Part shown: piece by piece, positions 3-60,889 of the stretch | How the letters are laid out: each line of letters starts with the position of its first letter | Numbering within the stretch: position 1 is the first letter of the stretch | From: Candidatus Latescibacterota bacterium | Lineage (GTDB): Bacteria > Latescibacterota > UBA2968 > UBA8231 | DNA length: 64,000 nucleotides | Direction: 5' to 3' | Assembly (NCBI GenBank): GCA_965204725.1 | Contig: OZ242005.1 | Coordinates: 224,001 to 288,000, forward strand | The notes under the pieces: generated by a model | Seen by the model: the letters and a program-made list of their open reading frames with translations, nothing else | The model's database searches: none | What the model was told of the DNA's origin: nothing | Translations under genes and position numbers: made by a program

Positions 3-1637
3 GTCCCAGCCGGGAAAGACTTCGATATCGGGGCCGGCTTGGTTGGCTCGCCCCCAGTCGGGCGTGCGGTCTTGGTCGTCGTTGTCCTCGACGAACTCGA
101 AGAAGCGGTTGTGGGTCGCATAGTCAATGACGCCCCGCTGGTCGCTGAGAAAAATGCTGGTCGCGTAGTCTTTGCCCATGCTGAATGCTTCGCCATAGAC
201 AAACCACGGATAGGCGTTTTTCGCCGCGTTCAGCATCCACGCATCGGCCCGCCGCGAAGCCGCGTGGTGGTCGCCTTCGACATTGGGGTTGGGGTATTTT
301 CTGAATTGGTGGTTGACCGCGTATTCGGCATAAGTGTCAAAGCCCAAGAAGCGAGTCGTCGCGAGGTGGAAACCGAAAATTTGGTTGGCAGTGGGCAGGC
401 CGTAGGCAAAGCGCACGAGCCGCTGGTTTGACGTGTCGCGCACATTGCCGTCGGCCCGGGCGATGAGCAGGGGATGGAATTCGCCGGCGCGGCTCAGTTG
501 GCGATTGGAGGCCATGGACACCTTGTAGTCGTTGGCCAGCACCAACTCGAACGTCACCTCGACAATGGTCGAGGGGTCTGGCCCCAAATAGGCGCGGTCG
601 GAAAAATCGTAGATGAGGCGAATGGCCTCGTCCCCGTCCGCGGCCAAAAAGCCCCCCGGCCGCTGGAAACCGCCTTGGACGAGGGGCGTGAAGTTGATCT
701 CCTTGCCGGTGACGGTTTCGCGCTCGCCGGTGTTGAAGTCGCTAATGGCCGTGATGATGATGTTTTGCGAAAACAGCGCGGCCCCACCCCGGCTGTCGGC
801 GGGCGAGTCGTCTTCGAGCAAAATTTCAATGCGGGTGACGGTGCTGCTGTTTTGATCGACGGTCAAATCGCCTTGGGCGCGCCCGCCGAGAAAGCTCTCC
901 AACAGGGTATTGGACTGGTGGGCGTTGACATAGGTGGCACCCAAGGAGACGAAATCGCCCACCTGAGCGGTGAAGTGGCCGCCGAGAAAGTCGGTGGTAT
1001 TCGACACGCCCGTAGGCACGGCACCGACCGCGACGCCCACTTGGTTGGGGGCACTGATGCGCGACAACAGCACGGTGGCTTGGTATTTGTCCGCGGCGAA
1101 ATCGGCCTCAATGCCATTGAAGGCCGGCTTGGAAAAAGTTAGGGGCGTCAGGGTCGTGCGAATGCTGTTGCCAATGGTCACCGCGTAGTGGTTTTGGCCC
1201 TTGCTGTCGGAGGCGATCAAGACGTTGTTGAACCACGAGCCATAGCGGCTGTCCTTGAATACGGTGCTGCCGAACTCGGCCGGTTGTTGCCGGCGCATGT
1301 CGTATATCAGCCAGCCTTGGGTGACAAAATTGCCGTATAGGTCGTAGAAGTAATGGCCCTCAATGGCCGTGTTGACGTAGCGCTGGTAATTCTCGCGGGC
1401 GTAGTTGTTGTACTGCCAAGGCCGCCAGCGGTACTCGTTGTAGAGTTCTTGGGGGACGTACCAGCGTTTGAGGGTGGGGTCGAGGGCGTCAAAGAGCACG
1501 CCCGGGCCGCGAGGTTCATAAGACACCCGACCGCCGCGCTGCACCCCGAGGCGCGAGCCGTAATCCTGCGCTTGGAGCCAAGCGGGACTCAGCAAGCAGC
1601 AAAGGAGCAGGAAAGCCAACCCGAACCGGCTAGACAT
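3..1637 (-). CDS. Uncharacterised secreted, putative outer-membrane protein; paralog of 44102..46852; truncated by the window edge
   Basis: Not in the ORF track. Manual translation from ATG 1637 gives MSSRFGLAFLLLCCLLSPAWLQAQDYGSRLGVQRGGRVSYEPRGPGVLFDALDPTLKRWYVPQELYNEY, and near position 1 FEFVEDNDDQDRTPDW; both align with the 916-aa protein. Starts 6 nt after the stop of 1644..3764. Confidence 0.88.
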   Translation of the reverse strand, partial: MSSRFGLAFLLLCCLLSPAWLQAQDYGSRLGVQRGGRVSYEPRGPGVLFDALDPTLKRWYVPQELYNEYRWRPWQYNNYARENYQRYVNTAIEGHYFYDLYGNFVTQGWLIYDMRRQQPAEFGSTVFKDSRYGSWFNNVLIASDSKGQNHYAVTIGNSIRTTLTPLTFSKPAFNGIEADFAADKYQATVLLSRISAPNQVGVAVGAVPTGVSNTTDFLGGHFTAQVGDFVSLGATYVNAHQSNTLLESFLGGRAQGDLTVDQNSSTVTRIEILLEDDSPADSRGGAALFSQNIIITAISDFNTGERETVTGKEINFTPLVQGGFQRPGGFLAADGDEAIRLIYDFSDRAYLGPDPSTIVEVTFELVLANDYKVSMASNRQLSRAGEFHPLLIARADGNVRDTSNQRLVRFAYGLPTANQIFGFHLATTRFLGFDTYAEYAVNHQFRKYPNPNVEGDHHAASRRADAWMLNAAKNAYPWFVYGEAFSMGKDYATSIFLSDQRGVIDYATHNRFFEFVEDNDDQDRTPDWGRANQAGPDIEVFPGWD

Positions 1638-1643
1638 GCTTGC

Positions 1644-3764
1644 TCAGTACGCCACGCTAACGAGGCCGGTTTTGGCCGCGGCGCCGACATTTGTATCGAG
1701 CGAGACGCGGACCAAATAGATGCCGGGCGCGACCACCGCGCCGTTGCCATCGCGCCCATCCCAAGCGGCGGCAAAGCGGCCGCTAGCCCGGTGGTCCGCA
1801 AAGGGCGCGGCGACGAACCGACCGCTCAAATCGCGGATCTCCACCCTGAGCGGCGCGCCTACGCCCAGCCGCAGCACCTCAAAATGGACCGCAGCCGCCT
1901 CGTTGACGCCGTCGCCGTTGGGGGTAAAAACTGCGGGGGTCACGTGAAGCCGCCCCAGCAGCGATCCCCTTATGGCGATGCGCACCGCCAAGTTGTTATC
2001 CACTGCGGTCAAATCCTCGCTGCCCACCGGGCGCGGATCCACGTCTTCGGCCCCGAGTTGCGCCGCATTGCCCGGCACCACCGCCTGCGGCAACGGCCCG
2101 TCGCCCGTCGCGGCCGGGTCGACCAGCCAAGCTCGACCGGCAAACCCCTGTCCAAAGCGCAAGACCGAAGTCGTGAACGAAATTTTGAGCAAATCGCCAT
2201 CGCCGACCGGGGGGAAGCCGACGACAAAGCGGCCGGGCGCAACGCTCTCAATGCTGAACTCGCCCACGCGCAGCGGCAAGTGCGCCTCGGCGAGGACCGC
2301 GTCAAAATCCGCCCCGGCGATTGGCTCGTCTTGGGCATTGAGCACCTCGATGCGGCCGATTTTTTCAAAGACGCTCGGCGAGGATATTTCAAAGCGATTG
2401 AAACCCGTATCCTGCGGCCGAACTCCCACCCGCGCTCCATAGGTGAACTCCACCACCTCCCCGGCCGCGACCTCGCGGGGGAAAATTTCGCCGACGATTT
2501 TTTCGGCCGGCACGGGGCGGGCCAGATCAAAGGACAGGGAGCCTACCCCGGCCGCGGCGAGAAAATCGCGGCTGACAAAATCAATCCTGAACTGGAAGTA
2601 CTGCCGCGGACCGGGTGAGACAATGGGCGTACCGGCCGGGGTCGTTCCCGCGGGCGGATAGGGGGGTGACCAGTTGCTCCAGTTGATTAGGTCGTCTCTT
2701 ATGGGTGCTTTTTGCTGGAGGGGCAGGCTGGCGTGATCGGCCTGTGAGAGCGCGAGGGCTTGCCGGACGGATTCGGGTTGGGAATTGTACTGGTCGAAAG
2801 CCTCGTCTAGGGGCAGGTCGTCGAGCAAGACGCCGTTGATTGCGGCCGCCTGCTGCCAAGGCACTTCCTGCAAGTCGGGGTTGAAGCGATTGAAGACAAA
2901 GGGCGTCGGGTCGCGGCCGGAACGGGTGAACACGCGAACATCCGACAGGCCGGCTAGGCCCTCGCGCCGCTCGCTCCAGCGCACCTGGCCCCAGTTGGCT
3001 AAATCGCCCAGATCGAAGATGTCCGACAAGTACTGGGCTTCGGGCACGAAGCCCGCGCCGAATAGTTCCAACTCATCGACTTCAAAGCCGATATTGGACA
3101 GCGACACCAAGCGCACGTAGCGCACGAATTGCAGGGGTAGGGACCAATCGACGACGGCCTCGGTGTTGTCCTCGACCCGCACGAAGGTAGTGTACTGCGG
3201 GCGGCCTTCCACCGACGTTTCCTCGCTGCCGTCGTTGAGTTGGAGGGCATAGCCGCGCATGAAGTCGTTTTCAAACTTGAACTCCGCACTAGGGCGAATG
3301 GTGTTGCGCGGGAAAAAGCGGATTCGGTTCACGCCAAAGCGCGCCCCCAAATCCAAGTCCATGATGATGCCGCGGGCGATGACTACTTCCCCGGCCGCGC
3401 TGGCCTTGCGGCGAAAGGCCGTTTCTGCATCCTCGTCAATCATGGCCGCCAGCGACGCCGCGCTGATCGAGGGCAGGGGCGAATTCATGCCGCCCCCCCG
3501 GTCGGACGCGCCGAGTGCCAGATTCCGCCCGGGGTCAATCTGTTGCGGGAAAATCCACCCCTCGGCAAACGCAAAGTCAATGACGCCGCCCGGCGTATTG
3601 CCAACGGCCAACTCGGTATTGGACAAGCGGAATTGCGGCGCAATTTCGTCCCCCCCGTCCAACCACGCCCGCCCACCTTGCCCCAAGGCAATGGTCTGTG
3701 CTGGGGCATCGGCGGCCAACGACAGCAACGCCGCGGCGAGAAGGCCGTACCTTTTCCTGCTCAT
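1644..3764 (-). CDS. Secreted discoidin-like protein with C-terminal FlgD-Ig/T9SS-like sorting domain (706 aa)
   Basis: Signal peptide; DLDLGARFGVNRIRFFP; WSNWS; C-terminal FTPNGDGVN..WDGRD..PGIY..LVSVAY. Confidence 0.85.
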   Translation of the reverse strand: MSRKRYGLLAAALLSLAADAPAQTIALGQGGRAWLDGGDEIAPQFRLSNTELAVGNTPGGVIDFAFAEGWIFPQQIDPGRNLALGASDRGGGMNSPLPSISAASLAAMIDEDAETAFRRKASAAGEVVIARGIIMDLDLGARFGVNRIRFFPRNTIRPSAEFKFENDFMRGYALQLNDGSEETSVEGRPQYTTFVRVEDNTEAVVDWSLPLQFVRYVRLVSLSNIGFEVDELELFGAGFVPEAQYLSDIFDLGDLANWGQVRWSERREGLAGLSDVRVFTRSGRDPTPFVFNRFNPDLQEVPWQQAAAINGVLLDDLPLDEAFDQYNSQPESVRQALALSQADHASLPLQQKAPIRDDLINWSNWSPPYPPAGTTPAGTPIVSPGPRQYFQFRIDFVSRDFLAAAGVGSLSFDLARPVPAEKIVGEIFPREVAAGEVVEFTYGARVGVRPQDTGFNRFEISSPSVFEKIGRIEVLNAQDEPIAGADFDAVLAEAHLPLRVGEFSIESVAPGRFVVGFPPVGDGDLLKISFTTSVLRFGQGFAGRAWLVDPAATGDGPLPQAVVPGNAAQLGAEDVDPRPVGSEDLTAVDNNLAVRIAIRGSLLGRLHVTPAVFTPNGDGVNEAAAVHFEVLRLGVGAPLRVEIRDLSGRFVAAPFADHRASGRFAAAWDGRDGNGAVVAPGIYLVRVSLDTNVGAAAKTGLVSVAY

Positions 3765-3790: not shown

Positions 3791-4660
3791 TTACTCTGCT
3801 CGCCAAGCCGGAACATCCCATGAATTGTACCACGCCCACGCCCACTTGACCTTTTTGGCTGGCATCTCCACTTCGTACTGAATGGGCGCGGTAAAGGGCA
3901 GCAGTTGGGCTTGGCCGTCAATCTGCTCCCGCAGGTCTTCGAGGAAGGCGTTGACGTCCGTTAGATTGGGCGGCCAATGACCGGCCGGAATCGGCTCGGA
4001 CTGGCGATCGGTCCGATAGTGGGTGGGAATGACGAATTTGGGCCGCACCGCATCAATTAGCGGCCCCATCGGCGTCTTCATGTGGATCAAGTAATCGACG
4101 CGACCGCGCAGATTCTCCAGCGGCGGATAGGTCCCGTGCAAATCCCCGGTGTGGAAAATCGCGACGTCGCGGGCGGCATGGGTGACTAGATAGGCGCAAG
4201 TGGGCAGATCCGGCCGGGCGCTTTCGCCGCTTTCGTACACTTCGACCTGAAGCGGGCCTAGGTCGAGCTCAAAGGGGCCGGGAAATTCGCGGCGACCATA
4301 GCGCGCGACATCCTGATATTTGGGATAGACCACTTGGACCTTGGCCGGGTCGATGTGCTTGGTGATGGGCAGGTCGCGCGCAAAAGCGGCGTCGCCGTAG
4401 TTTTCGTCAATGGGTTCGTTGGGCGTCAGACAGCCGATGGGGACGAAGAGTTTTTTCCAGCGCTCGCCTTGGCAGAGCTTGTGCAAGGTCTTGGGGTGAC
4501 AATGGTCAAAGTGCTCGTGGCTGATAAAAATATAGTCGAATATCGGCTCGGCTCGTTCCAGTTCGGCACCGAATAGATAGGGATCGAAACACACGTTGAC
4601 ATCGCCCAGCAATGCCTCAAAGTGCCCACATCCAGCCCAGCGCAGATACATGCTGTCCAT
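3791..4660 (-). CDS. MBL-fold metallo-hydrolase (UlaG/beta-lactamase-like)
   Basis: ISHEHFDH (HxHxDH) motif, FHTGD and IPTHY motifs; RBS GAGGAGG upstream. Confidence 0.85.
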   Translation of the reverse strand: MDSMYLRWAGCGHFEALLGDVNVCFDPYLFGAELERAEPIFDYIFISHEHFDHCHPKTLHKLCQGERWKKLFVPIGCLTPNEPIDENYGDAAFARDLPITKHIDPAKVQVVYPKYQDVARYGRREFPGPFELDLGPLQVEVYESGESARPDLPTCAYLVTHAARDVAIFHTGDLHGTYPPLENLRGRVDYLIHMKTPMGPLIDAVRPKFVIPTHYRTDRQSEPIPAGHWPPNLTDVNAFLEDLREQIDGQAQLLPFTAPIQYEVEMPAKKVKWAWAWYNSWDVPAWRAE

Positions 4661-6628: not shown

Positions 6629-7519
6629 TTAATGGACGAAACCGGCCTTGAGCCGGCCCCAAGTCGTGGCTTCAACCGAAGAGGGAATCGAGCCGAAGTC
6701 AACGCTCTCATCAATAGGCGACAAGAAGAAGTCGCTGCAACCATCGGCGTTCCTAAAGCCAATGTCGCTCTGGCTCAGGTTGTAGAATGCGTCCCAACCG
6801 CTGCACTCTTCGCCCTCGCGCGCCTCGCGGCAGCCAACATCGTAGTCCATCCAGTTGTAGTGGATGCCGATTATGTTGTTCTCTTGCATCGAGTGGATGA
6901 TCGACTCTCCGGGGCCGGCGGGATTGATGTCGTCGGTGGGGGCCAAGCGGATTTCCAGCCAAGTCGTCCCCGGACCGTAGTGTTCGCCTTCAAAAGTCGC
7001 CACCGCATTGTACCAGCCCTCCTCGGGCAGCCAAGTCGCCGCGCCCCAGAAGAAGTGGACAATTTCCGAGCCTAACACCGTGTCGCCGATGTTGTTGTAG
7101 GTCTCGGTCTGATAGCACTGCGAACCGTCCAACCGCTCATCGCCCGGGTAGCATTCGCCCCCGCTGTGATCGGCGTCGAGGAGAATTTGCCAAGTATCGC
7201 CCGGCCGGTTGATGTCGTCGAATACTTGGCTGTAAAAGTAGAGCCGGTTGGTCCCCAAGCTGAAGGTCACCGTGGCTTTGGCGTCGAAATTGGACGCATC
7301 GATCTCCCGTCCCCCTTGAGTATCGGGAAACTGCTCGGTGGTCTGCCAGTATGCCTCGGGGACGATATCGTATTCGCTGCCGACGCCGTCCAGTACGGGC
7401 TCGAGACCGGCTGGCCACTGGAAGGCCGGAAAAATGGCGCCTTCGGGCGAGTGCGCCGAAACATTGACCGCGAGGCCCAACGTGAGAGCCAAAGCAGCCG
7501 TCATAATATGACGTGCCAT
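6629..7519 (-). CDS. Secreted CBM9/DOMON-like protein with WGRLK C-terminal tail (296 aa)
   Basis: Start reassigned to MARHIM (RBS AAAGGA); signal peptide; RLY..DD, DADHSGG, IGI...DYD motifs; ends SSVEATTWGRLKAGFVH. Confidence 0.8.
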   Translation of the reverse strand: MARHIMTAALALTLGLAVNVSAHSPEGAIFPAFQWPAGLEPVLDGVGSEYDIVPEAYWQTTEQFPDTQGGREIDASNFDAKATVTFSLGTNRLYFYSQVFDDINRPGDTWQILLDADHSGGECYPGDERLDGSQCYQTETYNNIGDTVLGSEIVHFFWGAATWLPEEGWYNAVATFEGEHYGPGTTWLEIRLAPTDDINPAGPGESIIHSMQENNIIGIHYNWMDYDVGCREAREGEECSGWDAFYNLSQSDIGFRNADGCSDFFLSPIDESVDFGSIPSSVEATTWGRLKAGFVH

Positions 7520-7770: not shown

Positions 7771-7888
7771 CGCTAGCAGGCCACCCGCGCACCGGGTGCT
7801 TGCCGCGATGCCTTTTCTTTAATTCGTGCGCTTTGCCAGAGAAATATATATTCTGGTCGCCCACTTGAGTCTGCAAAGGAACCGCTTC

Positions 7889-9586
7889 ATGTATCGCATC
7901 CTCGTTGCAATACCGTATTTGGCACTCAGTTGGGTGCTGTTTGCTTGTGCGCCACCCGATCAATCTCCCGCGCCGGAGCAAACGGCCCCGCCAATCGCCG
8001 TCGCCCGAGTCGGCCGCGATTCTATTTTCGCGGTTGAAGTAGAGCGGCTCATTGCCTCGTTGGGGCCGGGTCTAAAATCCAGAGAGAGCGGCGATGCCGC
8101 GCGCCGCGATTACCTGCAATCGCTCATAGATCAGAAACTGCTCGCGCACGCAGCCCGCGCCCGCGGTTTGGACACGGTGCGGACCTTTGCGAACAAACTC
8201 GCGTGGAAATTTCGCGAAAAGGTCATCAACACCTACCAAAGCGTCAAAATAAGTGCCCGGATCGAGATTTCCGACGAGGAACTCGAGGAGCTGTTTGTCG
8301 CGGGCGATTTTCAGCGCGAAAAGCGCTTGCTCCGCCTGCTAGTCAACACCCGCGACGAAGCCGTGACATTGCGCCGCCAGATCGCCACGGCCGACGACTT
8401 CGCGGCCTTGGCCCAAGCCCATTCACTCGACCTGCAATCGGCCGAGCAGGGCGGCGATTTGGGCTATGTCAACCGCGTCGGCGCCGCCAATCACGGCATT
8501 CCCGTCCCGGTCTTTGCCAGCCTAAAGCAAGGTTCCCTGTCTGAAGTACTGCCCCTGAGCAAAAATTACCAGCTCGTTTTCTGCACGGCTGAACGCCAAG
8601 GCGATTTCGCCCAGTATCGCCAAGACTTGTACAAAGACGTGTGGAAGGAACGCTTCGTCGCCGAACATCAGGCCCTGATTGAGGAGTTGGCGAGTTCCTT
8701 AAATCTGCGCCTACACTCGGCTGGGCTGGCGGTCCTTACGGCCCAAGACCCCGCAGTCGATCCTTACCCCAAACTCGCCCCGGAGGACGGTTCGGCCCCG
8801 CTGTTCGTTTTTGATGGCGGCCGCATAACCGCGACTCACTACATTGAATCGTTCCGCCGCAGCCGGCAGGTGCCGGCCTTGGGCGACAGCCTGCAAATAA
8901 TCCGGGCGGCCTGGAAATTGCCCATTCCCAAGACGCTGGTCTGGCGCGCGGCCAAAGAGGCCGGCCACACGGAAAGCCCGGCCATGCGCTATTGGAAGCA
9001 GCGCAAGACCGAGGAAATGCTCATCCTCGCCCTGCGCCAGCACGAGATCAGCGACCAAATAACCATAACCGATGCGGCCGTAGCCCAGTACTACCAAGAC
9101 CATCGGGAACAATTTCGCACCCCGGTGGAAATGCGGCTCGACGAACTGTTAGTTGACGACCGCGACCACGCCCAGGCCCTGCGCCAGCGTCTGGACCGCG
9201 GCGAAACCATCGCCGATTTAGCTTCCCTGAGTCAGCGCCACGGGGGGCCGGATGGCCGGGGGAAAATTCATCTCCATTCGTATCAGCAAGGCATCTACGG
9301 CGCGCTCGTGGACCATGCTCTGGCCGCCGAAATCGGGGGCTTGGTCGGTCCGGTAGCGGTGACGGGCGGATATTCAATTTTCCGCCTCAAAGAGCGCAGC
9401 GGCGGGGAAATCGCCCCCTTAAAGGCGGTCCACAAGCGCGTAGCGGCGATTTTGCGCGTCATAGAGCAGGAACGGCGCTTCAACGAATTGGTCGCCCGCT
9501 ACCGAGAGCAATACGCCGATCAAGTGCATATCTTTGCAGAAGCCATTCCCCAAATCCAACTCGACCCGCCCGCGCCAGCGCGCTGA
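7889..9586 (+). CDS. Parvulin-type peptidyl-prolyl isomerase lipoprotein (SurA/PrsA-like)
   Basis: Start reassigned to MYRILV (RBS AAAGGA); lipobox LFAC; FAALAQAHS..SAEQGGDLG rotamase motif plus a second degenerate domain. Confidence 0.85.
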   Translation: MYRILVAIPYLALSWVLFACAPPDQSPAPEQTAPPIAVARVGRDSIFAVEVERLIASLGPGLKSRESGDAARRDYLQSLIDQKLLAHAARARGLDTVRTFANKLAWKFREKVINTYQSVKISARIEISDEELEELFVAGDFQREKRLLRLLVNTRDEAVTLRRQIATADDFAALAQAHSLDLQSAEQGGDLGYVNRVGAANHGIPVPVFASLKQGSLSEVLPLSKNYQLVFCTAERQGDFAQYRQDLYKDVWKERFVAEHQALIEELASSLNLRLHSAGLAVLTAQDPAVDPYPKLAPEDGSAPLFVFDGGRITATHYIESFRRSRQVPALGDSLQIIRAAWKLPIPKTLVWRAAKEAGHTESPAMRYWKQRKTEEMLILALRQHEISDQITITDAAVAQYYQDHREQFRTPVEMRLDELLVDDRDHAQALRQRLDRGETIADLASLSQRHGGPDGRGKIHLHSYQQGIYGALVDHALAAEIGGLVGPVAVTGGYSIFRLKERSGGEIAPLKAVHKRVAAILRVIEQERRFNELVARYREQYADQVHIFAEAIPQIQLDPPAPAR

Positions 9587-37642: not shown

Positions 37643-37823
37643 TAGCCGTCCTACATCCTTCATACGGGATGTTCTACATGGCGTTTTGGGTATGAGATAC
37701 TTCGCTGCGCTCAGTATGACAAGGTGTCTGGGGCACCAAGCCCCCGTCTGTGTGTCATGCTGAGCGCAGCGCAGCGAAGTCGAAGCATCTCTACATGCTT
37801 GCAAGTCATTTAGGATTGCTATA
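37641..37823. mobile_element. MITE-like element 2, sharing a TA with element 1
   Basis: Ends TATAGCCGTCCTA and TAGGATTGCTATA; internal inverted pair GAGATACTTCGCTGCGCTCAGTATGACA (37694..37721) and TGTCATGCTGAGCGCAGC...GAAGCATCTC (37753..37791). Confidence 0.65.
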
Positions 37824-43240: not shown

Positions 43241-43332
43241 AATGGTATCACCTGTGTACAAAACTGCGCGGCACCGCTTTCCCAGCGGCACCGCGCAGCG
43301 AGTTGAAATTGGCTTAGAAACCCTGTGCCGCG

Positions 43333-44091
43333 CTATTGGCCGATCGCCACCTTGCTCCCGTCGGGGTAGATGCGGCCAATCTCTCGCCCAAAGTGCATTT
43401 CGACGTCCACGTCCTCAAGCGGGTCTCCCTTGAAGTCGAAGCGCACCACCACATCGGGAATGTGGACGGTCAACTTTTCTACGTCTGGGGCCAGCGGCTT
43501 AAAGACGAGATACCCTTCGCTCTCTTGGGCACTGAACACGTCCTCATCGGGAAACATCGTGCCCCGCAAGATGCCGTCGCGCTCCTGCCAGACGTAGCGA
43601 GCATTACCGGGCGTCCCAGGGTCGTTGCCCCCTCTGCCCCCGCCGACATAACGGCGATAATATACCGAAAGCTGTTCGTGCCTCAGTGCGTAGTACTTGC
43701 GCCCATTAGAGGTGGTTATATAGACCTTTTTGGGGTCGAGATAGACCTTGGGGTATTCGTAATTAGAAAGGTACAGGCGAAAGACGGTGAATCGCTGCGG
43801 GGTGTCCCCCGTGCGAAAGTGCGTCGAGTTGCCAAAAGTATAGGGGTTGCGCGAGTCGGCTCCCTCGTTGGAATAGGTGCTGAACTGGCGGTTCAACTCC
43901 TCGTCGGTCATCGGCCGCAGGCTGACTTCGAGCCGGGCCTGTCTATAAGACACAGTGCCGTCGTCGGCCACCGTCTTGTTAGCCCCTTGCTCGGCCTCGC
44001 TCAGCGGCGTGAGGTCTTCGGCATAGTAGCGATAGGAGCAGCCCGAAAAAAGCAGCCCGGCCAAAAGCAGCAGTGTGCAACACTTCAGCAT
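43333..44091 (-). CDS. Uncharacterised lipoprotein (252 aa), paralog of 26142..26885
   Basis: Lipobox FSGC; PMTDEELNRQF, NPYTFGN, QRFTVFRL and NYEYPKV motifs. Confidence 0.85.
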   Translation of the reverse strand: MLKCCTLLLLAGLLFSGCSYRYYAEDLTPLSEAEQGANKTVADDGTVSYRQARLEVSLRPMTDEELNRQFSTYSNEGADSRNPYTFGNSTHFRTGDTPQRFTVFRLYLSNYEYPKVYLDPKKVYITTSNGRKYYALRHEQLSVYYRRYVGGGRGGNDPGTPGNARYVWQERDGILRGTMFPDEDVFSAQESEGYLVFKPLAPDVEKLTVHIPDVVVRFDFKGDPLEDVDVEMHFGREIGRIYPDGSKVAIGQ

Positions 44092-49900: not shown

Positions 49901-50236
49901 GGATTTGGCGGTCGTACCTCCAGAGACTAGATCGCCGTTAGCGCGGACCAAATCGGGATAGGTGAAATCGACAGCCGTCGGAGCCACGTTGATATTGCGG
50001 CGAAAGAACGTCGGCCGCAGACCGTCGGCCGCAACTTGGAAGATATCCGCATCGCGGATTGGCACATTCAAATTCGCAACCAGATCGTTCTGATAGAGCC
50101 AGTTTTCCCAGTGTGAGGCTCGATCCACGCGAATCGAGTTGCCGGAAAGCCTGTAGGCATTCGTTTGGGCCAGACAGAAACTGGGCATAAACAGTACGGC
50201 GAAGAGGGCCGCCTGCCGTTTTAGCAGTCGTTTCAT
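46901..50236 (-). CDS. Secreted discoidin-like protein with FlgD-Ig/T9SS-like C-terminal domain (1111 aa)
   Basis: Signal peptide; IDLG and YDLG discoidin-like motifs; WSEWS; FTPNGDGVND..WDGRD..PGLY..LVHVAY. Confidence 0.87.
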   Translation of the reverse strand: MKRLLKRQAALFAVLFMPSFCLAQTNAYRLSGNSIRVDRASHWENWLYQNDLVANLNVPIRDADIFQVAADGLRPTFFRRNINVAPTAVDFTYPDLVRANGDLVSGGTTAKSNDRLANNVIDGDLSTFWEPATPASFASRLTRPGDFNLDGLRNWEIEIDLGRLVFADSLTIIFPAGQFEGEFLGEPVKSFALFASMGERFPFPLGNNLKFSLIGRVSTDFVAGKLAQCVRDESSGYAGETRCEGGGGGESGEVALVPVPGTEGRHVQMTFPLWPLDRADWDLNGQPDISGAFIQYVRIKITNSALWRDSFLGADEEARLAYEALPQERRGAIVYQRQTAGGLLVELQSDDNLTAEEKYQNLPVEKRGSILYYSKEVPRIAEVQVWAKGDNYALQPERRAGASFENGGLGAPNLATDGLYDSEWVANTWSPVYLKGTAWYDLGAVFWVDNVSVVNKRINQSHQGAFLGPDILVSDGTLLKPVSMNDRDDFPQLEEALKWDNIISEEHVDNHTPVVRIFRETFLRRKIRFLQIRDIDVTGVQSGRYGALATMAEIQLYGEGYPVSVWAYSPPISQTDSRGNFIRKTLPRIAWEGDVIVRETDPLTGQARERIEPLDLHPDVRLQIQTRTSDQTDTNFTYYQVVTVAGNEERTEVSKEIYDEIALKWTAWEIWQTLPESKRHASRKDDDGDGVTDEDEIDLIDNDGDGLIDEDGKKLRRAPRSSFDKDGELAFVGWSEWSESYLPTNGVNEATITSPNPRKFLQVRVNISSEDPFKTARIRSLRVELAPPLALELAGELALLSDEGATRIPSDLDVQTSDYTPPRNVDPLAPQQFAYFIRAATPDPTDATVRDGFDEVLVVAPRAVRVTGVRLGQVAIAQTPSFLNPEEVLTSATTTKFDRAFAPGDDGVFRSEDGLVLDRMATGEDSIWVRFPFSLNADLPTGQHALIEVQFESQSFREGIEFASFVRSSDSDEGVFQRVDTVDKDATELVDSSTARISLMDLPGSLIQDVGMASVFTPNGDGVNDQLWVHFVLLKIQEERPLEVAFYDLSGRLVGRGQSSATGGKVGTQAFVWDGRDMGGQVVPPGLYLCQIKVEADDRDSELTRLVHVAY

Positions 50237-50272: not shown

Positions 50273-52753
50273 TCAATACGCTACGGAAACAATGCGCGTC
50301 TGGGGCGTACCCGCGTGATCGGCTTCGGTCGAAATGCGCAACATGTATAGGCCCGGAGGCACTACCTGTCCAGCATCGTCGCGACCATCCCATGGTTGAG
50401 AATATCCTCCCGACGACAGATGGCGCTCAATAAAGCGCAGTCGCCGACCGTTCAAAGCAAATATCTCTAGATGCACCGGCCTCGGCGTTAGCAGCCGCTG
50501 TATATCAAAAGCGGCGACTATTTCGTCGTTGACCTCGTCGCCATTGGGCGTAAACGGATTGGGCGCGACCCTAAAGTTGGTCACGAGATTCTTGCTTTGC
50601 GCTGAAATATCGGCGATCACCGCTAGGGAATTGCGATCTGAGAGTTGGTCCGTCGCGGCGAAGTCCACCACGTCATTGTCCTGCACCCGCTGTGGCAGGA
50701 AGAGGGCCAGCGTATCGAGCCCACTCTCGCTACTCCCAAGTGCCAAAATACCGTTTCTGGTAAAGCGCCGCTCCACTTCTGCTCCTAAGGTATCTAGGAA
50801 GACGCTGGCGACGAAGTTAGTGCGGAAATCGATGACTCGCCCCTGAAAGCAGACCTTTACCAATACGTTGCGAACTTGGCCATCCTCAGCAGGGCTGATG
50901 GCTGGAAAACCAACGACGAACTGATCGTCGGCGACGTACAATTCTCGAAACTGATTCTCGCCGATCTCGCCTTCGCCGCCCGCTCGTTCCAAGTTCAGGA
51001 ACTCCCCGTCGCCTAGATCCACTTCCACCCCCTCAATGGCCTCTGTGCGCGCCGGAGTAAAAACCTGCAAGCGATTGAAGCCGTTGTTCTCGGCCCCTAT
51101 CTCAGCACTGAGGACCAATACAAAGGAGGTGTCGCGACCTGCAATTACATCCACGGCCGGAGCGATCTCACCGCCGATCTGATCCGTTATCTGTGGGGCA
51201 GAGTATTCAAAGCGTAAGTTGCTAATAATCGTGGCCGCCTCGGGTTCTTGGCTCAGAAACTCAACCTCTATCTGAATGAAGGGCCGACCACTCGGCGCAT
51301 TGATCAACTCGCCATTGTTGGCTAACTGGACGCCACTCCAAAACTCGAGATCAGGTTCGACATGGCGCCGTACATTGCCCGGCAGGGCCTTGTACTCCTT
51401 GCGGGTCAGGCGGACTCGCGCTCGATCCTCGGGCAGAGCGGCACTGAAGATCTCACGAGCCTCCAGATTGAAATTTTCATCGTTTAGGTCCACTTCTTGG
51501 CCTTCGGTCAATGAACCGAGCCTCCGGTCAATAATAGTTGCCCCCTCTGCACGCCACTCCACTTCGCGCTCAAAGTCATTGACGCGAAAAAGCACATCCG
51601 GCTCGGGATTGACGCCGGTCTGGACGCGTACGATAGCGCGCGACCTATTGGGATCGCCAATTTTTCTCTCGTCCCAGAAGATCCGCCCCAAGGTCGCCGG
51701 GGGCAGCGGCAGAGCATTGGAAGTATATACCGCTTCGGGCACGAAACCGTCGGCGAAAAACTCCATTTCAGCCAAGTCGTAGTCCAGCGGAGTCTGAAAA
51801 TCGAAGCGCGCATAGCGCATGTAAGCCTGCGGATCAAAGGCCACAGCAATGGTGTCTTCCACATTGACTGGTACGCTCGCCTCGGAAACGAAAGTCGGAA
51901 AAGTCGGAGCTATGCTAGTAAACCTAGGGAATGCCAACTGCCCAATGCTCGGATCGTCGAGACTAAGACCGGCGATTATCTTCTCAGTCTCAGGCAGCCC
52001 TCTATGGAAGGTGTAAGCGGAAACACGCGCAGGCTCTTCAAGACTGGGGTAGAGGCGGAACAAGCGAATTGGAAAGTAGCGTCCTAGGTCGATATAGAGG
52101 GTCCATATCTGCTTGACATCCTGCCCAACTCGGTCAATGCGCTCGAAATGGGTCAGTGGATCGCCATCGAAAACGCTCCCCAAGCCCTCTTGGAGTCGCT
52201 GATCAGTCAAAGCCCTTTCAAAAATGCCGAGAGTTGTGAGATTGAGCCCCTTGTTGTACTTATCGCCGCCGGGAGGGCGAGGAAAAGATTCGGCCACGTT
52301 GATCAGGGCCTCAATCTCGGTAATGCCAGCTTGGCGTAATAGCTGGACAGCCTCTAGGCTTTGCGGAAAGGGACTCCAGCGAGGAATCAAGACCGTGCCC
52401 GCCTCTACGATCGTGCCATCTTCAAGTTCGATATCAGTCGGTGCGACTACATCGGCTCTGGTTACATTAAGCGAGAAAGCAAAGAGGCTGGAATCGGTCG
52501 CCGCATCTACTTCGGTGGCGGTTAATGCAAGAGAGATTTCGGGAACGGGGACTACACGCAGTGGCGTGATAGGCCCAATGCCATTTTCATAGCTTTCAAA
52601 GTCTATTACTTCAATGAAGCGACTTTCTGAAAGCGGCCCCTGTTTGGCTTCGGCCCAAGTTGTGTTGCCCGGGATGGCAAATAGACGCAACTCTGCAGCA
52701 TTTGCTACCCCACCTGCCAAAATCAGCACGGCGACACAAATACCAACTCTCAT
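50273..52753 (-). CDS. Secreted discoidin-like protein with FlgD-Ig/T9SS-like C-terminal domain (826 aa)
   Basis: Start set at MRVGIC (RBS GGAG); IDLGRYFPIRLFRLYP; PNPFTPNGDEVND..WDGRD..PGLY..IVSVAY. Confidence 0.85.
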   Translation of the reverse strand: MRVGICVAVLILAGGVANAAELRLFAIPGNTTWAEAKQGPLSESRFIEVIDFESYENGIGPITPLRVVPVPEISLALTATEVDAATDSSLFAFSLNVTRADVVAPTDIELEDGTIVEAGTVLIPRWSPFPQSLEAVQLLRQAGITEIEALINVAESFPRPPGGDKYNKGLNLTTLGIFERALTDQRLQEGLGSVFDGDPLTHFERIDRVGQDVKQIWTLYIDLGRYFPIRLFRLYPSLEEPARVSAYTFHRGLPETEKIIAGLSLDDPSIGQLAFPRFTSIAPTFPTFVSEASVPVNVEDTIAVAFDPQAYMRYARFDFQTPLDYDLAEMEFFADGFVPEAVYTSNALPLPPATLGRIFWDERKIGDPNRSRAIVRVQTGVNPEPDVLFRVNDFEREVEWRAEGATIIDRRLGSLTEGQEVDLNDENFNLEAREIFSAALPEDRARVRLTRKEYKALPGNVRRHVEPDLEFWSGVQLANNGELINAPSGRPFIQIEVEFLSQEPEAATIISNLRFEYSAPQITDQIGGEIAPAVDVIAGRDTSFVLVLSAEIGAENNGFNRLQVFTPARTEAIEGVEVDLGDGEFLNLERAGGEGEIGENQFRELYVADDQFVVGFPAISPAEDGQVRNVLVKVCFQGRVIDFRTNFVASVFLDTLGAEVERRFTRNGILALGSSESGLDTLALFLPQRVQDNDVVDFAATDQLSDRNSLAVIADISAQSKNLVTNFRVAPNPFTPNGDEVNDEIVAAFDIQRLLTPRPVHLEIFALNGRRLRFIERHLSSGGYSQPWDGRDDAGQVVPPGLYMLRISTEADHAGTPQTRIVSVAY

Positions 52754-52860
52754 TCCGTTACTCCCCGGTAGAATTTGCCCGGATCGCAGCATGGGCAAAC
52801 AGGAGCGAGGTATTATGACGCGAGGAAGGTAGCTATCTACGTTATGCGATAGCCACGAGA

Positions 52861-52904
52861 TAATTTTAAGGAGAGGAGGAAGCATTCCCCCTCTCCTTAA
52901 ATTA
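52861..52904. terminator. Hairpin between the first and second genes of module B
   Basis: TTTAAGGAGAGG (52865..52876) pairs with CCTCTCCTTAAA (52890..52901), extendable at both ends. Confidence 0.7.
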
Positions 52905-52926
52905 GGAAAACAGCAGGACGCTACTA

Positions 52927-53823
52927 TTACTCAATCGCGGCCTTGATGCGGCCCCAAGACTCTTCTTCGACCGACGTTTCACCGGTGCCGACCAAGCGAC
53001 CATCGACGAAACGCTCGGCATAGCGCCAAGTCGCGGCCTGACCAGACAAGGTGTGAAAGGCGCGGTACTCTGACGGGCCTGTATCCATGTCCTGAGCCGA
53101 AATTTGGAACCCAATGATCTTGCCGTCGAAGAGAGGCGACGGGACGCTGTCGTCGGGACTATTCCAGATCAGATCGTCGAAAGGCGTGACGAAAAATTCG
53201 ATGATCGTAGTCGTCGGTCCGTCCCCGACCGAACCCCCACCGCCATCGGCGTAGGGCAGCGCGTTGACCCACTCGGTGCCTTTGCCCAGATAGCCGACAT
53301 GGCGGCCGTCAGGAGTATCGCCGATAGCCACGTACTGCTGAGCCGTGCGGTTGTTATTCAGGTCTTTCTCTTCGTCGGTCCAGTTCTCGTCAGCCGAACC
53401 GGTATAGTCTCCACCGGTGTGGTCGCCATCAAGCATGAACTCAATAGCATCTTGCCGCCACAAGCTACCCAAGTCACCGCCAGCGTACTCGTTGATGTAC
53501 ACATTGTCGATGCGCTCCATACCCATCCAGATGGTTCCGGCATTGCCGTTCCAGCCCAGCCAGATGCGGTAGTCTAGGTCTGCCGGATCGTACTGAGCAC
53601 CATCGCCTACAGTCGGATCGTGAAAGAAATCAGTCGTGGTCAGCGCAGCATCACCAATCACGTCTTCCCAGTCTGCTATGCTGGCATCGCGCAGATCGAT
53701 GTCAGCCAGATCCGCCTCGGAAACTTCAAAGAGCAGGTAGATCTGTTCGCCAATATGTGCGTTGGCACCGCTCGTCAGGCCCACTATCAGGCCCATAGCG
53801 ATAAGGCCATATAGACGTTTCAT
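52927..53823 (-). CDS. Secreted CBM9/DOMON-like protein with WGRIK tail (298 aa)
   Basis: Start MKRLYG with RBS AAGGAG; DAIEFMLDGDHTGG and IIGFQI..DMD; ends TSVEEESWGRIKAAIE. Confidence 0.85.
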   Translation of the reverse strand: MKRLYGLIAMGLIVGLTSGANAHIGEQIYLLFEVSEADLADIDLRDASIADWEDVIGDAALTTTDFFHDPTVGDGAQYDPADLDYRIWLGWNGNAGTIWMGMERIDNVYINEYAGGDLGSLWRQDAIEFMLDGDHTGGDYTGSADENWTDEEKDLNNNRTAQQYVAIGDTPDGRHVGYLGKGTEWVNALPYADGGGGSVGDGPTTTIIEFFVTPFDDLIWNSPDDSVPSPLFDGKIIGFQISAQDMDTGPSEYRAFHTLSGQAATWRYAERFVDGRLVGTGETSVEEESWGRIKAAIE

Positions 53824-53840: not shown

Positions 53841-54091
53841 AATACCCCTTATCGGGAGTGTGGTGGTTTGGGGCAGCGACCTTTTCGGCTCGAACTGCGT
53901 CGTAGCACAGCCCTCCATTGCTTATTGCCTTCATAGGTCTGTCTTCCCCTGCATGATATGGATTGCCCCCTAGTAGTCGTGTACTTAGGGGCCTCTGTTA
54001 GGAAATAATTATAAAGTTTTCTCGATTGTAATTCAAGTATCTTGTATTCGGCAGTGCTTGGCCCGTTGGCATACTCCCGATAAGGGGTATT
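53841..54091. repeat. 22-bp inverted repeat pair (21/22 identical) flanking a 207-bp promoter segment
   Basis: 53841..53862 AATACCCCTTATCGGGAGTGTG versus 54070..54091 CATACTCCCGATAAGGGGTATT. Confidence 0.9.
54008..54036 (-). promoter_or_regulatory. sigma70 promoter of module B, inside the inverted repeats
   Basis: Minus strand TTGAAT-N17-TATAAT. Confidence 0.8.
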
Positions 54092-59356: not shown

Positions 59357-59809
59357 CTATTTGAATAGGTCCTTTACCTTGCCCCAAGTGCTTTCATCTA
59401 CTTCGGTAGCTAAGGGTTGCAGCAGGTCTTGGCCCGGGCCGGCCCAGTGCAAAGCGCCCGCGGAATCTATGGCTGCGAAATAATCCCCGTCGGCGTCCAG
59501 CCGCGCTTTGATGTACGCGGGGACCGCCGAGGACTGTGCGGCCCTCGCGCCCGACCACAGGGTCAGCCCCTCAACCGTCGGCCCTTGCCCGTCGCGGGCA
59601 ATGGCGACGAGCCGCTGCTCAGCATCTTGGGCGCGGAACTGATGCCATAGCTGCAAGACCCGCTGGTGCTGCGGGGGCCTATCGGGTGAGAATACGTAGA
59701 ATACGCGGCTGTCTTTTGGCAGGGCCTCGATCGGGCCGCTGTTCGCTTCACTCGCTAGGGCCAGCAGCAGGACCAAGCCCGTCGTCCATGTCATTCGTAG
59801 TGCTTTCAT
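59357..59809 (-). CDS. Small secreted protein with WGKVK tail
   Basis: Signal peptide; ends TEVDESTWGKVKDLFK. Confidence 0.75.
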   Translation of the reverse strand: MKALRMTWTTGLVLLLALASEANSGPIEALPKDSRVFYVFSPDRPPQHQRVLQLWHQFRAQDAEQRLVAIARDGQGPTVEGLTLWSGARAAQSSAVPAYIKARLDADGDYFAAIDSAGALHWAGPGQDLLQPLATEVDESTWGKVKDLFK

Positions 59810-59821
59810 AATAATTGACCT

Positions 59822-60889
59822 TTATTCGGCGCGAATTCCATAGTCCTTTTGCACGGCGGCTTCCCCTTGGAGAATCCTCACCAGCGACAGGTGTTGGCTG
59901 AGTACCTGTTCGACTTGCACGACGCCGACCCGACGGGGCAGAGCCGTTCCCAACACCTCGCCGGTATCCGGGTCTTTCAGTTCTCGCCCCTTGTCCCACA
60001 CGCCGTACTTGTTGCCTTTCTGCACTGAATCGGCTAATCCCACGTTAATATAAGCACTCAGCCGCACTCGCACAGATTCTCCGTTTTGCACGGTATCGGC
60101 CACCACCTCTATGATTTTCGGCTCGGAGACCTTCAGGGCGGCCGGGGGTTGGATGAGGCTGTCCAGCCCGGCAGCCAAGCGGTCCAAGCATCGACTCACC
60201 GACTTGCCCAGCAAGGTGTTGTGGAATTCCTCGCTACCCCACTCCATCTGCCCCAAGAGGAAGTACTCTTTTTCCAGCGGCACGTACGCCGCCGGGTTGG
60301 TGATCCCATAGCGCTTGCTGTCCTCAGCGACTTCCCGCTTCACCTCGCCGGCTACTTCCCCGTCTATGACCTTGTAGGGAAACAGCTGGACCTCGGTCAG
60401 GCCCTGATAGCTGCGATAGCCGCCGATGGGCACGGTGGCGCGGAAGCGCTTCATACTCATCTCGTCGATCTGCCCCAAGACGACGTAATCGGCATCCACC
60501 TCGCGGCCAATCGCCAAGGCGCGCTCTACGCGGACCTTGCCTTGCAATTCTTTCTTTTTTAGCCGCACGAGCGCCGAATCAATGGACACCGTGCTGAAAA
60601 AGGCACTACCGCTCAGCGAATCGGCCAAGCCGCGCGGGATGGCCGAGTATATGTCCCACTCGCCCTTGTATTTCGACTTGTCGCGAAAGGGCATGAACAG
60701 CAGCCGCTGCTTGAGTTCCTCCGCAATGGTGCTGTCGCTGACCACTGGCTCCTCGGGGGCCTCTTCCTCTTCCTTTTGATCGCCCAACCCCATAATCGGC
60801 ACCACCGCAGCTTCCCCGTCTGCCCCCCAGTACAGCGCGGCCAACAAAACAAATCCCCCCCGCAAAAACCACCTGCATCTTTCCGACAT
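59822..60889 (-). CDS. CsgG/FlgO-like domain protein with FlgT C-terminal-like domain
   Basis: MPFRDKS..IGREVDADYVVLGQI; C-terminal YINVG..ELKDPDTGEVLG..VGVVQV; start set at MSERCR. Confidence 0.65.
   Translation of the reverse strand: MSERCRWFLRGGFVLLAALYWGADGEAAVVPIMGLGDQKEEEEAPEEPVVSDSTIAEELKQRLLFMPFRDKSKYKGEWDIYSAIPRGLADSLSGSAFFSTVSIDSALVRLKKKELQGKVRVERALAIGREVDADYVVLGQIDEMSMKRFRATVPIGGYRSYQGLTEVQLFPYKVIDGEVAGEVKREVAEDSKRYGITNPAAYVPLEKEYFLLGQMEWGSEEFHNTLLGKSVSRCLDRLAAGLDSLIQPPAALKVSEPKIIEVVADTVQNGESVRVRLSAYINVGLADSVQKGNKYGVWDKGRELKDPDTGEVLGTALPRRVGVVQVEQVLSQHLSLVRILQGEAAVQKDYGIRAE

Follow-up and report, generated by a model that had tools for sequence, protein, structure and literature searches.

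Giant outer-membrane barrels, lectin-like proteins and ExbBD hubs form a conserved gene system in Latescibacterota, putatively accessory to the type IX secretion translocon

A 64,000-nucleotide stretch of a Candidatus Latescibacterota genome (assembly GCA_965204725.1, contig OZ242005.1, positions 224,001 to 288,000; here called the window, G000:C1:224001-288000 in our coordinates) carries three gene modules, A, B and C. They combine giant predicted outer-membrane barrels, lectin-like proteins with C-terminal sorting domains (CTDs), CBM9-like proteins, peptidyl-prolyl isomerases (PPIases), lipoproteins and, in module C, an ExbB/ExbD (ExbBD) motor. The initial annotation of the window had read them as a secretion and surface-display system in its own right, resembling a type IX secretion system (T9SS). 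A conserved gene unit with a conserved ExbBD hub remains of that reading; a stand-alone secretion system does not. Judged by gene distribution, the barrel system appears to be a co-inherited accessory set atop the T9SS translocon and no replacement for it. Our tentative account, which we stop a little short of calling probable, is that T9SS-delivered lectins dock on cognate barrels powered by shared ExbBD hubs and serve glycan capture, possibly uptake. The families, folds, synteny and co-distribution reported here were established directly, and every contact and direction of transport in that account is inferred.

The genome that holds the window spans 5.43 Mb in two contigs and is 94% complete. 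Genes were called as six-frame open reading frames (ORFs) with the longest start, and hidden Markov models (HMMs) built from window proteins were run over all ORFs of the genome with thresholds chosen in this analysis; the census used ORFs of at least 80 amino acids (aa), and PPIases of the module architecture were counted at 300 bits or more. All genes named in the initial annotation are open frames at their positions, most of them on the minus strand (Table 1), and the recurrence of gene families that it described proved far wider: modules A and B are two of 28 same-strand runs anchored by barrels. Genome-wide there are 38 giant barrels (one split), 31 CBM9-like proteins, 28 PPIases, 13 lipoproteins of the module family, 11 PorV/Q-family barrels, 9 DUF4159 proteins, 3 ExbB, 5 ExbD and 185 CTD-ended ORFs, with five families making up 7.9% of the genome. 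A run usually reads CBM9-like gene, hairpin, optional lipoprotein, one to three CTD proteins, one or two barrels (~900 aa) and a lipoprotein PPIase.

This clustering exceeds that of 1000 random placements inside the same genome. A CTD gene lies within 6 kb of 37 of the 38 barrels (random mean 9.7, maximum 17), a PPIase within 10 kb of 28 (4.0, 11), a CBM9-like gene within 12 kb of 33 (4.9, 13) and a lipoprotein within 12 kb of 12 (2.1, 8). Within the window, all-against-all blastp finds paralogy between the partial barrel of module A (3-1637) and the 916-aa barrel of module B (44102-46852; 50.9% identity over 558 columns, E 2e-173), between the lipoproteins at 43333-44091 and 26142-27050 (48.0%, E 7e-76), between the PPIases at 7826-9586 and 41573-43291 (26.9%, E 4e-45) and among the three CBM9-like proteins (24.8-30.6%, E 4e-12 to 8e-29). 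Six CTD proteins align along hundreds of residues, beyond the CTD alone. Module A extends leftwards beyond the window, where the rest of its barrel (full gene G000:C1:222908-225637, 909 aa, 1240 bits on the family HMM), a second barrel and another CTD gene are found.

That the modules form a unit, as had been claimed, holds in other genomes as well. Family HMMs combined with an analysis of gene neighbourhoods, the check proposed with that claim, found the barrel-module gene order kept in 61 Latescibacterota-type loci of other records, in which the companions of the barrel are a CTD gene (60 loci), a PPIase (50), a CBM9-like gene (49) and the lipoprotein (35). At E 0.001 the barrel family comprises 1,022 representative clusters among 1.84 billion proteins, and the records in which relatives of the 916-aa protein were found carry the label Latescibacterota or, for some, Gemmatimonadota or another name.

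A search with an alignment of the module C tetratricopeptide repeat (TPR) protein returned 80 loci with full-length relatives: 57 of module C type (identity at least 42%), 21 distant ones (identity 22-31%) in records labelled KSB1, Ignavibacteria, Kryptonia and Bacteroidota, and two distant paralogous ones in a Latescibacterota record. ExbB is kept in 56 of the 57 orthologous loci, ExbD in 55 and a DUF4159 gene after ExbD in 56, bearing out module C as a conserved ExbBD core. These loci, many with short upstream flanks, also keep the PorV/Q-like barrel (37), the divergent CTD gene (25), the lipoprotein (26) and the CBM9-like gene (23). The 21 distant loci have the order CTD, PorP-like barrel, giant barrel, TPR, ExbB, ExbD, DUF4159, lipoprotein (barrel and CTD gene in 18 each; ExbB, DUF4159 and lipoprotein in 17 each). 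Five distant genomes of the phylum, each with a single lipoprotein gene, show a similar set: CTD, PorV/Q-like barrel, giant barrel(s), TPR, ExbB, ExbD(s), DUF4159 and lipoprotein.

The relation to the T9SS follows from a genome-wide search and from co-distribution. The initial annotation had reported SprA and GldKLMN as missing from the window, which is correct for the window; elsewhere in the genome, SprA is present as a 2,162-aa frame at G000:C1:3033398-3039886 (TIGR04189, 611 bits), and PorU at C1:346-351 kb (623 bits, cut-off 420) stands beside a PorV-family barrel (PorV_fam 239 bits, cut-off 90; PorV equivalog only 157.5 bits, cut-off 250). The motor was not detected in the whole of this 94% complete genome either: GldL, GldM and GldN gave no match there, and GldK reached at best 66 bits against a cut-off of 350, with generic sulfatase-modifying-domain matches only. 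GldL was over cut-off in none of 121 genomes of the phylum, and the same model was positive in 49 of 201 genomes of the phylum of the Ignavibacterium record, a positive control that the GldM, GldN and GldK models lack.

The 121 genomes were drawn evenly from the phylum and are kin, not independent. SprA was detected in 116 of them, the barrel in 72, the lipoprotein in 69 and the lectin cargo family, scored at E 1e-30, in 58. Each of the four is found in 40 of 40 genomes of the window's own family; in three sister families of the same class, SprA is found in 44 of 44 genomes and the barrel, lipoprotein and lectin cargo in none. SprA is therefore independent of the barrel system, which forms a co-inherited accessory set. 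All nine hub-bearing genomes outside the phylum have SprA and none has GldL, nine genomes being too few and too related to test exclusivity. With SprA, PorU and PorV encoded elsewhere, and only 77 of 185 CTD ORFs near a barrel, the claim of a stand-alone secretion system is not supported. Our literature search found no paper on a T9SS in Latescibacteria and, among the papers listed on the T9SS, GldL and ExbB, none on this system; for outer-membrane secretion systems in Latescibacterota it gave one paper, apparently a survey of metagenome-assembled genomes from sediment; subscription journals and bioRxiv supplements lay outside its coverage.

For the 916-aa barrel, Pfam gives no family at a threshold as loose as E 1, and NCBIfam gives none at E 0.01. 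An AlphaFold2 (AF2) model built from 27 sequences (pLDDT 65.9, pTM 0.66) has ~28 strands over residues 154-914, with a 127-residue acidic Asp/Asn-rich insert in what strand count on the model places as an outward-facing loop. The top Foldseek match is the SlpA surface-layer (S-layer) anchor barrel 8ae1 (E 2e-8, TM 0.28). Foldseek and VIA both return generic large barrels (SlpA, LptD, MtrB, ushers, Omp85s), the VIA list is flat at Z 12-14 (FhaC, OccK, TamA, CymA, LptD, BamA, FimD), and SprA is not among the matches listed by either. The low TM-scores and the flat list therefore indicate a likeness of fold class only, and the model predicts a large outer-membrane barrel, nothing more specific. 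A special resemblance to SprA, ushers, LptD or TonB-dependent transporters (TBDTs) was considered and rejected (TM 0.13-0.28 on the query). Among 34 paralogues in the genome, the best-conserved stretches are residues 61-120, 161-180, 281-300 and the acidic block at 561-640; conservation of the first two and of the acidic block is the pattern expected if partners are shared.

The CTDs are of T9SS type, as first described: FlgD_ig/CHU_C tails occur on six window proteins, which also match the tail of PorU. CHU_C and/or FlgD_ig pass the Pfam cut-off in four of the six, both module B proteins falling below; CHU_C passes in three (37.6, 37.1 and 33.8 bits), and TIGR04131 stays under its cut-off in all. 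The lectin assignment comes from the body of these proteins. The profile of the 4685-6547 family gives weak F5/8 type C (CBM32) matches over residues 90-225, the nearest Atlas cluster has F5_F8_type_C in 70% of its members, and the hub CTD protein of the records labelled Ignavibacterium album (a metagenome-assembled genome, MAG) and Kryptonium passes the Pfam cut-offs of both F5_F8_type_C and CHU_C. The 77 CTD proteins near a barrel end in ...VAVAY, have a terminal Tyr in 97% of cases versus 26% of the other 108, and in 75 cases have one common body family. In the module B protein at 50273-52885 the signal peptide starts at an internal Met, and the true start is probably near 52753. The 252-aa lipoprotein of module B has no Pfam family (even at E 1) or NCBIfam family and its Atlas neighbours are all unnamed; a search of PDB sequences for its identity gave nothing credible, the best match being to a phage portal at E 0.0015.

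The label 'CBM9-like' holds by fold: the best Foldseek match of the AF2 model (pLDDT 65.9) is CBM9 entry 1i82 (E 9e-12, TM 0.76 on the target), 7nwn also being matched. Of the three window proteins, one clears the Pfam CBM9_1 cut-off (26.5 vs 23.4 bits), and the other two match no family even at E 1. Their C-terminal WG tail is specific, in line with the initial annotation: WG[KR][ILVM]K occurs 26 times in ORFs of at least 80 aa, 23 of them in the last 25 residues, and 16 of these 23 ORFs are CBM9-like proteins, with the conserved tail ...SVExxSWGRIK. The other seven are not members of this family, which makes a portable signal a possible role for the tail. In modules A and B, the hairpin reported 3' of the CBM9-like gene is likewise a real feature of the sequence (z -3.4 and -5.6; 0 of 200 shuffles equally stable), with a terminator-like site at 6623-6609 in module A. 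Over the genome, the 100 nucleotides 3' of the 31 CBM9-like genes have a median minimum free energy (MFE) of -39.1 kcal/mol vs -28.3 for 400 random genes (Mann-Whitney p 2e-10), and 16 of the 31 lie below the random 10th percentile. No hairpin or terminator was found 3' of the module C gene (z +1.05); there, its stop shares one base with the lipoprotein start (UGAUG, 26883-26887), an overlap which suggests translational coupling replacing the hairpin of modules A and B.

In the CBM9-like proteins, the mature chain is predicted to begin with His in 21 of 31 cases (by regex) and with Gln in six. This His directly follows a small-x-small signal-peptidase site, a feature followed through 28 paralogues beyond the window trio, and a second invariant His lies inside a DxDHSGG motif. 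A copper site like that of lytic polysaccharide monooxygenases (LPMOs) was dropped as unsupported, not disproved: Foldseek gives CBM9 and, further down, DOMON-type haem b subunits, and no LPMO is among the matches listed.

Pfam confirms the ExbB, ExbD and DUF4159 families of module C as first annotated. The DUF4159 protein was called TonB-like, which is apt for its shape (membrane helices, linker, periplasmic head) and not for its domains, TonB_C being missing. The TPR protein scores 294 bits on YbgF-type repeats and 116 bits on PorW/SprE (cut-off 250) in NCBIfam. The barrel named PorV-like reaches 77.8 bits on PorV_fam, under the PorV/PorQ cut-off of 90, and also 44.7 bits on PorP/SprF TIGR03519 (cut-off 90.55); it contains no cysteine. 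Its counterpart in the Ignavibacterium record scores 22.9 bits on PorP_SprF (cut-off 22.3).

Three ExbB-ExbD sets occur in the genome: that of module C, that of a fuller cluster at C1:92-110 kb and an ExbB-ExbD-ExbD set beside the only ordinary TonB_C protein. The genome has two TonB_C matches and 20 Plug-domain receptors, which this third set presumably serves. With one canonical TonB system beside the third set, the other two are therefore dedicated ones, two in all for 38 barrels. The fuller hub reads PPIase, lipoprotein, ExbD, ExbD, ExbB, TPR, barrel, PorV/Q-like barrel, CTD, an unassigned 216-aa ORF, lipoprotein, barrel, CBM9-like.

Several further loci touch on hub proteins. The PorV/PorP-like barrel of module C has a copy with 94% identity at G000:C1:1653609-1655547, where it adjoins a 45% paralogue, remote from the modules and flanked by sulfate-activation and UMP kinase genes. 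At G000:C1:2462867-2465569 a 900-aa TPR protein (424 bits on the hub TPR HMM) ends in a TonB_C domain (30.8 bits) and is a natural TPR-TonB fusion. In the Ignavibacterium and Kryptonium records (L203:14627-16126 and L194:16581-18122), a ~500-aa lipoprotein carries a C-terminal DUF4159 domain, so DUF4159 heads may sit on both membranes.

We propose that the system consists of spokes and hubs. Spokes (modules A and B among the 28 runs) comprise one or two barrels, one to three discoidin-type lectins ending in ...VAVAY, a CBM9-fold first gene with its hairpin, a PPIase that often bears a lipobox and sometimes a ~250-aa lipoprotein; hubs (module C and C1:92-110 kb) comprise ExbB/ExbD, a ~1,090-aa TPR protein, a membrane-anchored DUF4159 protein, a PorP/PorV-like barrel and a lipoprotein. 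Lectins would pass the outer membrane through the ordinary SprA translocon and dock on the cognate barrel or on the PorP-like anchor. The ExbBD hub would feed proton-motive energy to the barrels by way of the DUF4159 and TPR proteins, perhaps with the barrels' conserved N-terminal periplasmic stretch as the point of contact. The outcome would be a set of substrate-specific, energised glycan-capture devices; uptake through the barrel, the least certain step, may follow.

A sugar theme is suggested by the CBM9 fold, the discoidin domain and neighbours for sugar acids and sugar catabolism, and sugar binding is predicted. The neighbours come from a scan of 66 of the 82 ORFs of at least 200 aa among 103 unassigned ORFs in the runs, the other 16 lying outside the scanned stretches; they include GFO/IDH/MocA, xylose-isomerase-like, enolase-superfamily, DHDPS-family, FGGY and sugar ABC importer genes. 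A broader proposal, which we hold possible and yet doubtful, is a new proton-motor-coupled outer-membrane machine common to Latescibacterota, KSB1, Ignavibacteria and Kryptonia, in which SprA is present and GldL undetected. Its driving side would consist of an ExbBD motor, a transducer headed by DUF4159 and a TPR scaffold of 1,000 aa, its driven side of a 28-strand barrel and a lectin anchored by PorP. The barrel-lectin pair would have multiplied in Latescibacterota into ~28 substrate-specific modules (~8% of the genome), as a non-TonB, T9SS-fed counterpart of polysaccharide utilisation loci (PULs).

Several findings weigh against this picture. Neither AF2 model rises above middling confidence (pLDDT 65.9 for each), and the barrel model drops below pLDDT 50 over the N-terminal 153 residues and 537-622. 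The C-terminal residue of the barrels is E, Q or L oftener than aromatic. Family f10 of the phylum has the barrel in 13 of 13 genomes, and just one of these 13 shows the lectin family at E 1e-30. No lipoprotein lies near 26 of the 38 barrels, and most spokes have no PorP-like barrel; the parts list is therefore not uniform. No glycoside hydrolase, polysaccharide lyase or sulfatase is found among the 66 companion ORFs scanned, so that a digestive PUL-like role would have no enzymes unless the lectins are themselves enzymes. Pfam gives no TonB_C match in the module C DUF4159 protein, both TonB_C matches of the genome lying elsewhere, and its S-x3-H motif at residue 71, a helix motif which we take to be comparable to that of TonB/TolA, is seen in no more than 41 of the 75 copies of the cluster.

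Other accounts of the same genes differ in what the motor and the barrels would do. The motor might drag a discoidin CTD adhesin on a PorP-like anchor, or a polymer, in the manner of Agl-Glt/Nfs, giving gliding-like movement or coat assembly with the spokes as alternative adhesin sets. The gene content parallels the Agl-Glt core (one TolQ/ExbB-like protein, two TolR/ExbD-like, a secreted TPR protein of ~1,100-1,200 aa and a TonB-shaped protein) as far as the available part of PMC3169522 describes it, and in the accessible text of PMC12635249 the PorP-like SprF of Bacteroidota couples an adhesin to a moving track. We regard surface transport as unlikely: the small barrel of module C is free of cysteine, so SprF-type disulfide coupling is impossible for it, GldK was not found in the genome, 28 modules with sugar-catabolic neighbours suit nutrition over motility, and the Agl-Glt likeness is one of gene content. 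Alternatively, the hub could be the missing power train of a T9SS without GldKLMN, with ExbBD, TPR and DUF4159 proteins energising SprA export and the giant and PorP-like barrels as adaptors. This would fit GldL being over cut-off in 0 of 121 phylum genomes and 0 of 9 hub-bearing genomes elsewhere (with the model positive in 49 of 201), SprA in all nine of the latter, and the 116 bits of the TPR protein on PorW/SprE, a match below cut-off in a repeat class whose matches are promiscuous. The sister families make this decidedly unlikely: all 44 genomes have SprA, none has the barrel or lipoprotein, GldL is over cut-off in none, and the hub TPR protein was found in none of the five tested at E 1e-10, so SprA exists there with neither motor. 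Moreover, the five hub-positive genomes among the 201 do not suffice for a test, as GldL would be missing from all of five randomly drawn genomes in roughly one case out of four.

A secretion system of their own, with the giant barrel as an ExbBD-powered, SprA-independent translocon for the neighbouring CTD and WG-tail proteins, would account for the distinct ...VAVAY subclass of CTDs that accompanies the barrels, the WGRIK tag as a second conserved C-terminus, borne by the product of the first gene, the periplasmic chaperone in each module, the width of a ~28-strand barrel, sufficient for a conduit, and the failure to find GldK/L/M/N. We consider it very unlikely, given SprA, PorU and PorV in the genome, SprA in 116 of 121 phylum genomes and in all nine hub-bearing genomes from other lineages, CTDs that match the T9SS models CHU_C and FlgD_ig and the PorU tail, and a barrel with no special likeness to any translocon in the Foldseek and VIA lists; the pairing of the hub CTD protein with a PorP/SprF-like barrel is, by the portion of PMC9143113 at hand, a known T9SS type-B arrangement. 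Finally, the barrels might be energy-free anchors or pores of a passive surface layer or of porin-plus-lectin sets, with the ExbBD link a matter of neighbourhood. SlpA as the best Foldseek match, a weak match to Pfam SlpA_C, below cut-off at E 0.002, in the Ignavibacterium record and the distance of most spokes from a hub all point this way; the adjacency of barrel, TPR and ExbBD genes across several phylum-level lineages, the same phyletic pattern of barrel and hub lipoprotein and the conserved N-terminal periplasmic stretch retained by barrel paralogues render a passive role highly improbable. Docking of T9SS-delivered lectins on hub-powered barrels is the reading with which we proceed.

The features of the window are listed in Table 1. 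The metallo-β-lactamase (MBL) fold of the hydrolase reported in module A was confirmed by Pfam.

Table 1 Features of the window by module, with the evidence for each assignment
Position	Strand	Feature	Module	Evidence
3..1637	-	Giant barrel, N-terminal 545 aa	A	51% identity to 916-aa protein
1644..3764	-	Lectin-like CTD protein, 706 aa, ends ...VSVAY	A	FlgD_ig 32 bits; body homologous to other CTD proteins
3791..4660	-	MBL-fold hydrolase, 289 aa, not a recurrent module part	A	Lactamase_B_3 40.7 bits
4685..6547	-	Lectin-like CTD protein, 620 aa	A	CHU_C 37.6, FlgD_ig 32.6 bits
6548..6628	-	Two stem-loops 3' of CBM9-like gene, U run after the first	A	MFE -43 kcal/mol, z -3.4
6629..7519	-	CBM9-like secreted protein, C-terminal tail ...SVEATTWGRLKAGFVH	A	Alignment, tail scan, family fold
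7826..9586	+	Divergent PPIase, two parvulin domains, SurA_N-like, lipobox-like LFAC	A	Rotamase_2 63, Rotamase 39.5 bits
9596..11554; 33038..34684; 37823..39550	-; +; +	FG-GAP/ASPIC (CRTAC1-like) paralogues	Between modules	40-47% identity
12342..14180	+	Another CTD protein of lectin-like type, 612 aa		47% identity to 4685-6547
14210..16243	-	DUF6785+DUF6784 polytopic membrane protein, recurrent companion		Pfam 410.7 and 86.2 bits
19315..20676	-	DUF4159 protein, 453 aa, three hydrophobic helices, linker, periplasmic head	C	DUF4159 90.7 bits
20714..21121	-	ExbD/TolR	C	ExbD 98.6 bits
21156..21809	-	ExbB/TolQ	C	MotA_ExbB 81.9 bits
21852..25097	-	TPR protein, 1,081 aa, N-terminal hydrophobic segment	C	TPR families
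25153..26106	-	PorV/PorQ/PorP-like small barrel, 317 aa, ends in F	C	PorV_fam and PorP/SprF scores
26142..26885	-	Lipoprotein of module family	C	48% identity to 43333-44091
26885..27817	-	CBM9-like protein, tail ...SWGRLKASLY	C	CBM9_1 26.5 bits, cut-off 23.4
28264..30918	+	Lectin-like CTD protein, 884 aa, divergent	C	CHU_C 33.8, FlgD_ig 32.3 bits
30798..33041	+	PMT_2 glycosyltransferase-like membrane protein, C-terminal TPRs, recurrent companion		PMT_2 57.9 bits
41573..43291	-	PPIase, lipobox-like AVAGC	B	Rotamase_2, Rotamase, Rotamase_3
43333..44091	-	Lipoprotein, 252 aa, without known family	B	Lipobox FSGC
44102..46852	-	Giant predicted outer-membrane barrel, 916 aa, new family	B	AF2 model, ~28 strands, residues 154-914
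46901..50236	-	CTD protein, 1,111 aa, ends ...VHVAY	B	CHU_C 26.6 bits, just below cut-off 27
50273..52885	-	CTD protein, 826-870 aa	B	CHU_C 21.6 bits, below cut-off
52860..52926	-	17-bp stem-loop 3' of CBM9-like gene	B	MFE -33.7 kcal/mol, z -5.6
52927..53823	-	CBM9-like protein, tail ...SWGRIKAAIE	B	blastp, tail scan, alignment
54008..54036	-	Promoter-like site upstream of module	B	TTGAAT-17-TATAAT, 10/12 matches, consensus match only
59357..59809	-	150-aa secreted protein, tail ...STWGKVKDLFK, without CBM9-like body		Tail scan

Some companions recur beside the modules. The 66 scanned ORFs include 7 DUF6785+DUF6784, 7 PMT_2+TPR, 10 TPR-only, 4 PhyH-family and 5 restriction-modification proteins. 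DUF6785 has 33 paralogues in the genome, a large expansion of its own of which about half sits close to giant barrels, with one within 15 kb of 20 of the 38 barrels (random mean 6.2), and the DUF6785+DUF6784 proteins are candidates for inner-membrane partners; the literature search, within the coverage given above, found no paper on DUF6785. Besides the window copy, seven PMT_2 (polyprenyl-phosphate-sugar glycosyltransferase-like) plus TPR proteins adjoin other modules, a hint of periplasmic glycosylation of module proteins. Of 45 FG-GAP/ASPIC genes counted genome-wide, 24 have a barrel no more than 15 kb away, and TPR genes at 34461-37510 also fill the space between modules. Near module A are a Kelch protein (11260-12186, minus strand; NanM, N-acetylneuraminate epimerase, 53.7 bits) and a DHDPS-family aldolase (16895-17791, minus strand), a pair that may reflect a sialic-acid-type theme. 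Two module runs (L105 and L106, G000:C1:417852-423624 and 594320-610190) enclose restriction-modification genes: a TdeIII-type endonuclease with its methylase, an MmeI-like enzyme and an HNH-methylase pair.

Gene families of unknown function that take up ~8% of a genome would have a role central to how these abundant uncultured bacteria meet their surroundings. Several phylum-level lineages that have the T9SS translocon without its known motor retain the hub, which thus bears on how outer-membrane transport or surface movement is powered outside the classical Bacteroidota. Ignavibacterium album has a cultured type strain, and the cluster in the record labelled with that name (MAG, L203) may bring the question within reach of experiment. 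Current annotation is silent on the barrel, the lipoprotein and the ...VAVAY and WGRIK tails, which are new sequence families and signals.

The system fails, or leaves unsettled, a defining feature of each of the type-B CTD/PorP, Agl-Glt and TonB/SusCD arrangements. With LptD-LptE, MtrB-MtrA/C and SlpA, its top Foldseek rows, it has in common the size of the barrel and a small lipoprotein; TM-scores are only 0.16-0.33, and the modules have no lipopolysaccharide-transport or cytochrome genes. As in TonB-ExbBD/TBDT and SusC/SusD loci, many paralogous barrels are found with their own predicted sugar-binding surface proteins, few ExbBD motors and sugar-catabolic neighbours. The barrel, however, has no Plug or TonB_dep_Rec domain, SusD and a hub TonB_C are missing, the 66 scanned neighbours include no glycoside hydrolase, and the genome has its 20 Plug receptors and canonical TonB set separately.

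Closer in cargo is the type-B T9SS of Bacteroidota, in which, according to the part of PMC9143113 available, CHU_C-type cargo is encoded beside its own outer-membrane partner. Here too the hub partner is a PorP/PorV-like barrel, and SprA, PorU and PorV are in the genome. In contrast, the spoke partner is a ~28-strand, 900-aa barrel of no known family, modules A and B have no PorP/SprF barrel, the CTD is of the ...VAVAY kind, the PPIase, CBM9-like first gene and ExbBD hub have no counterpart, and GldKLMN were not found. SprF bonds to GldK through a twin-cysteine C-tail, as the consulted extract of PMC12635249 has it; the module C barrel is without cysteine and GldK was not found. The Agl-Glt/Nfs systems of Myxococcus and its relatives, whose function outside Myxococcus is given as unknown in the excerpted text of PMC3169522, show, as a parallel in gene content, a TolQR/ExbBD-type motor (one ExbB and two ExbD in the fuller hub, a single ExbD in module C), a very long secreted TPR protein, a TonB-shaped protein and barrels in one cluster. 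That likeness is by gene content: a DUF4159 head takes the place of TonB_C, the giant barrel, lipoprotein and T9SS-type cargo are not Glt parts, and the expansion to 28 satellite modules is unique to the system described here.

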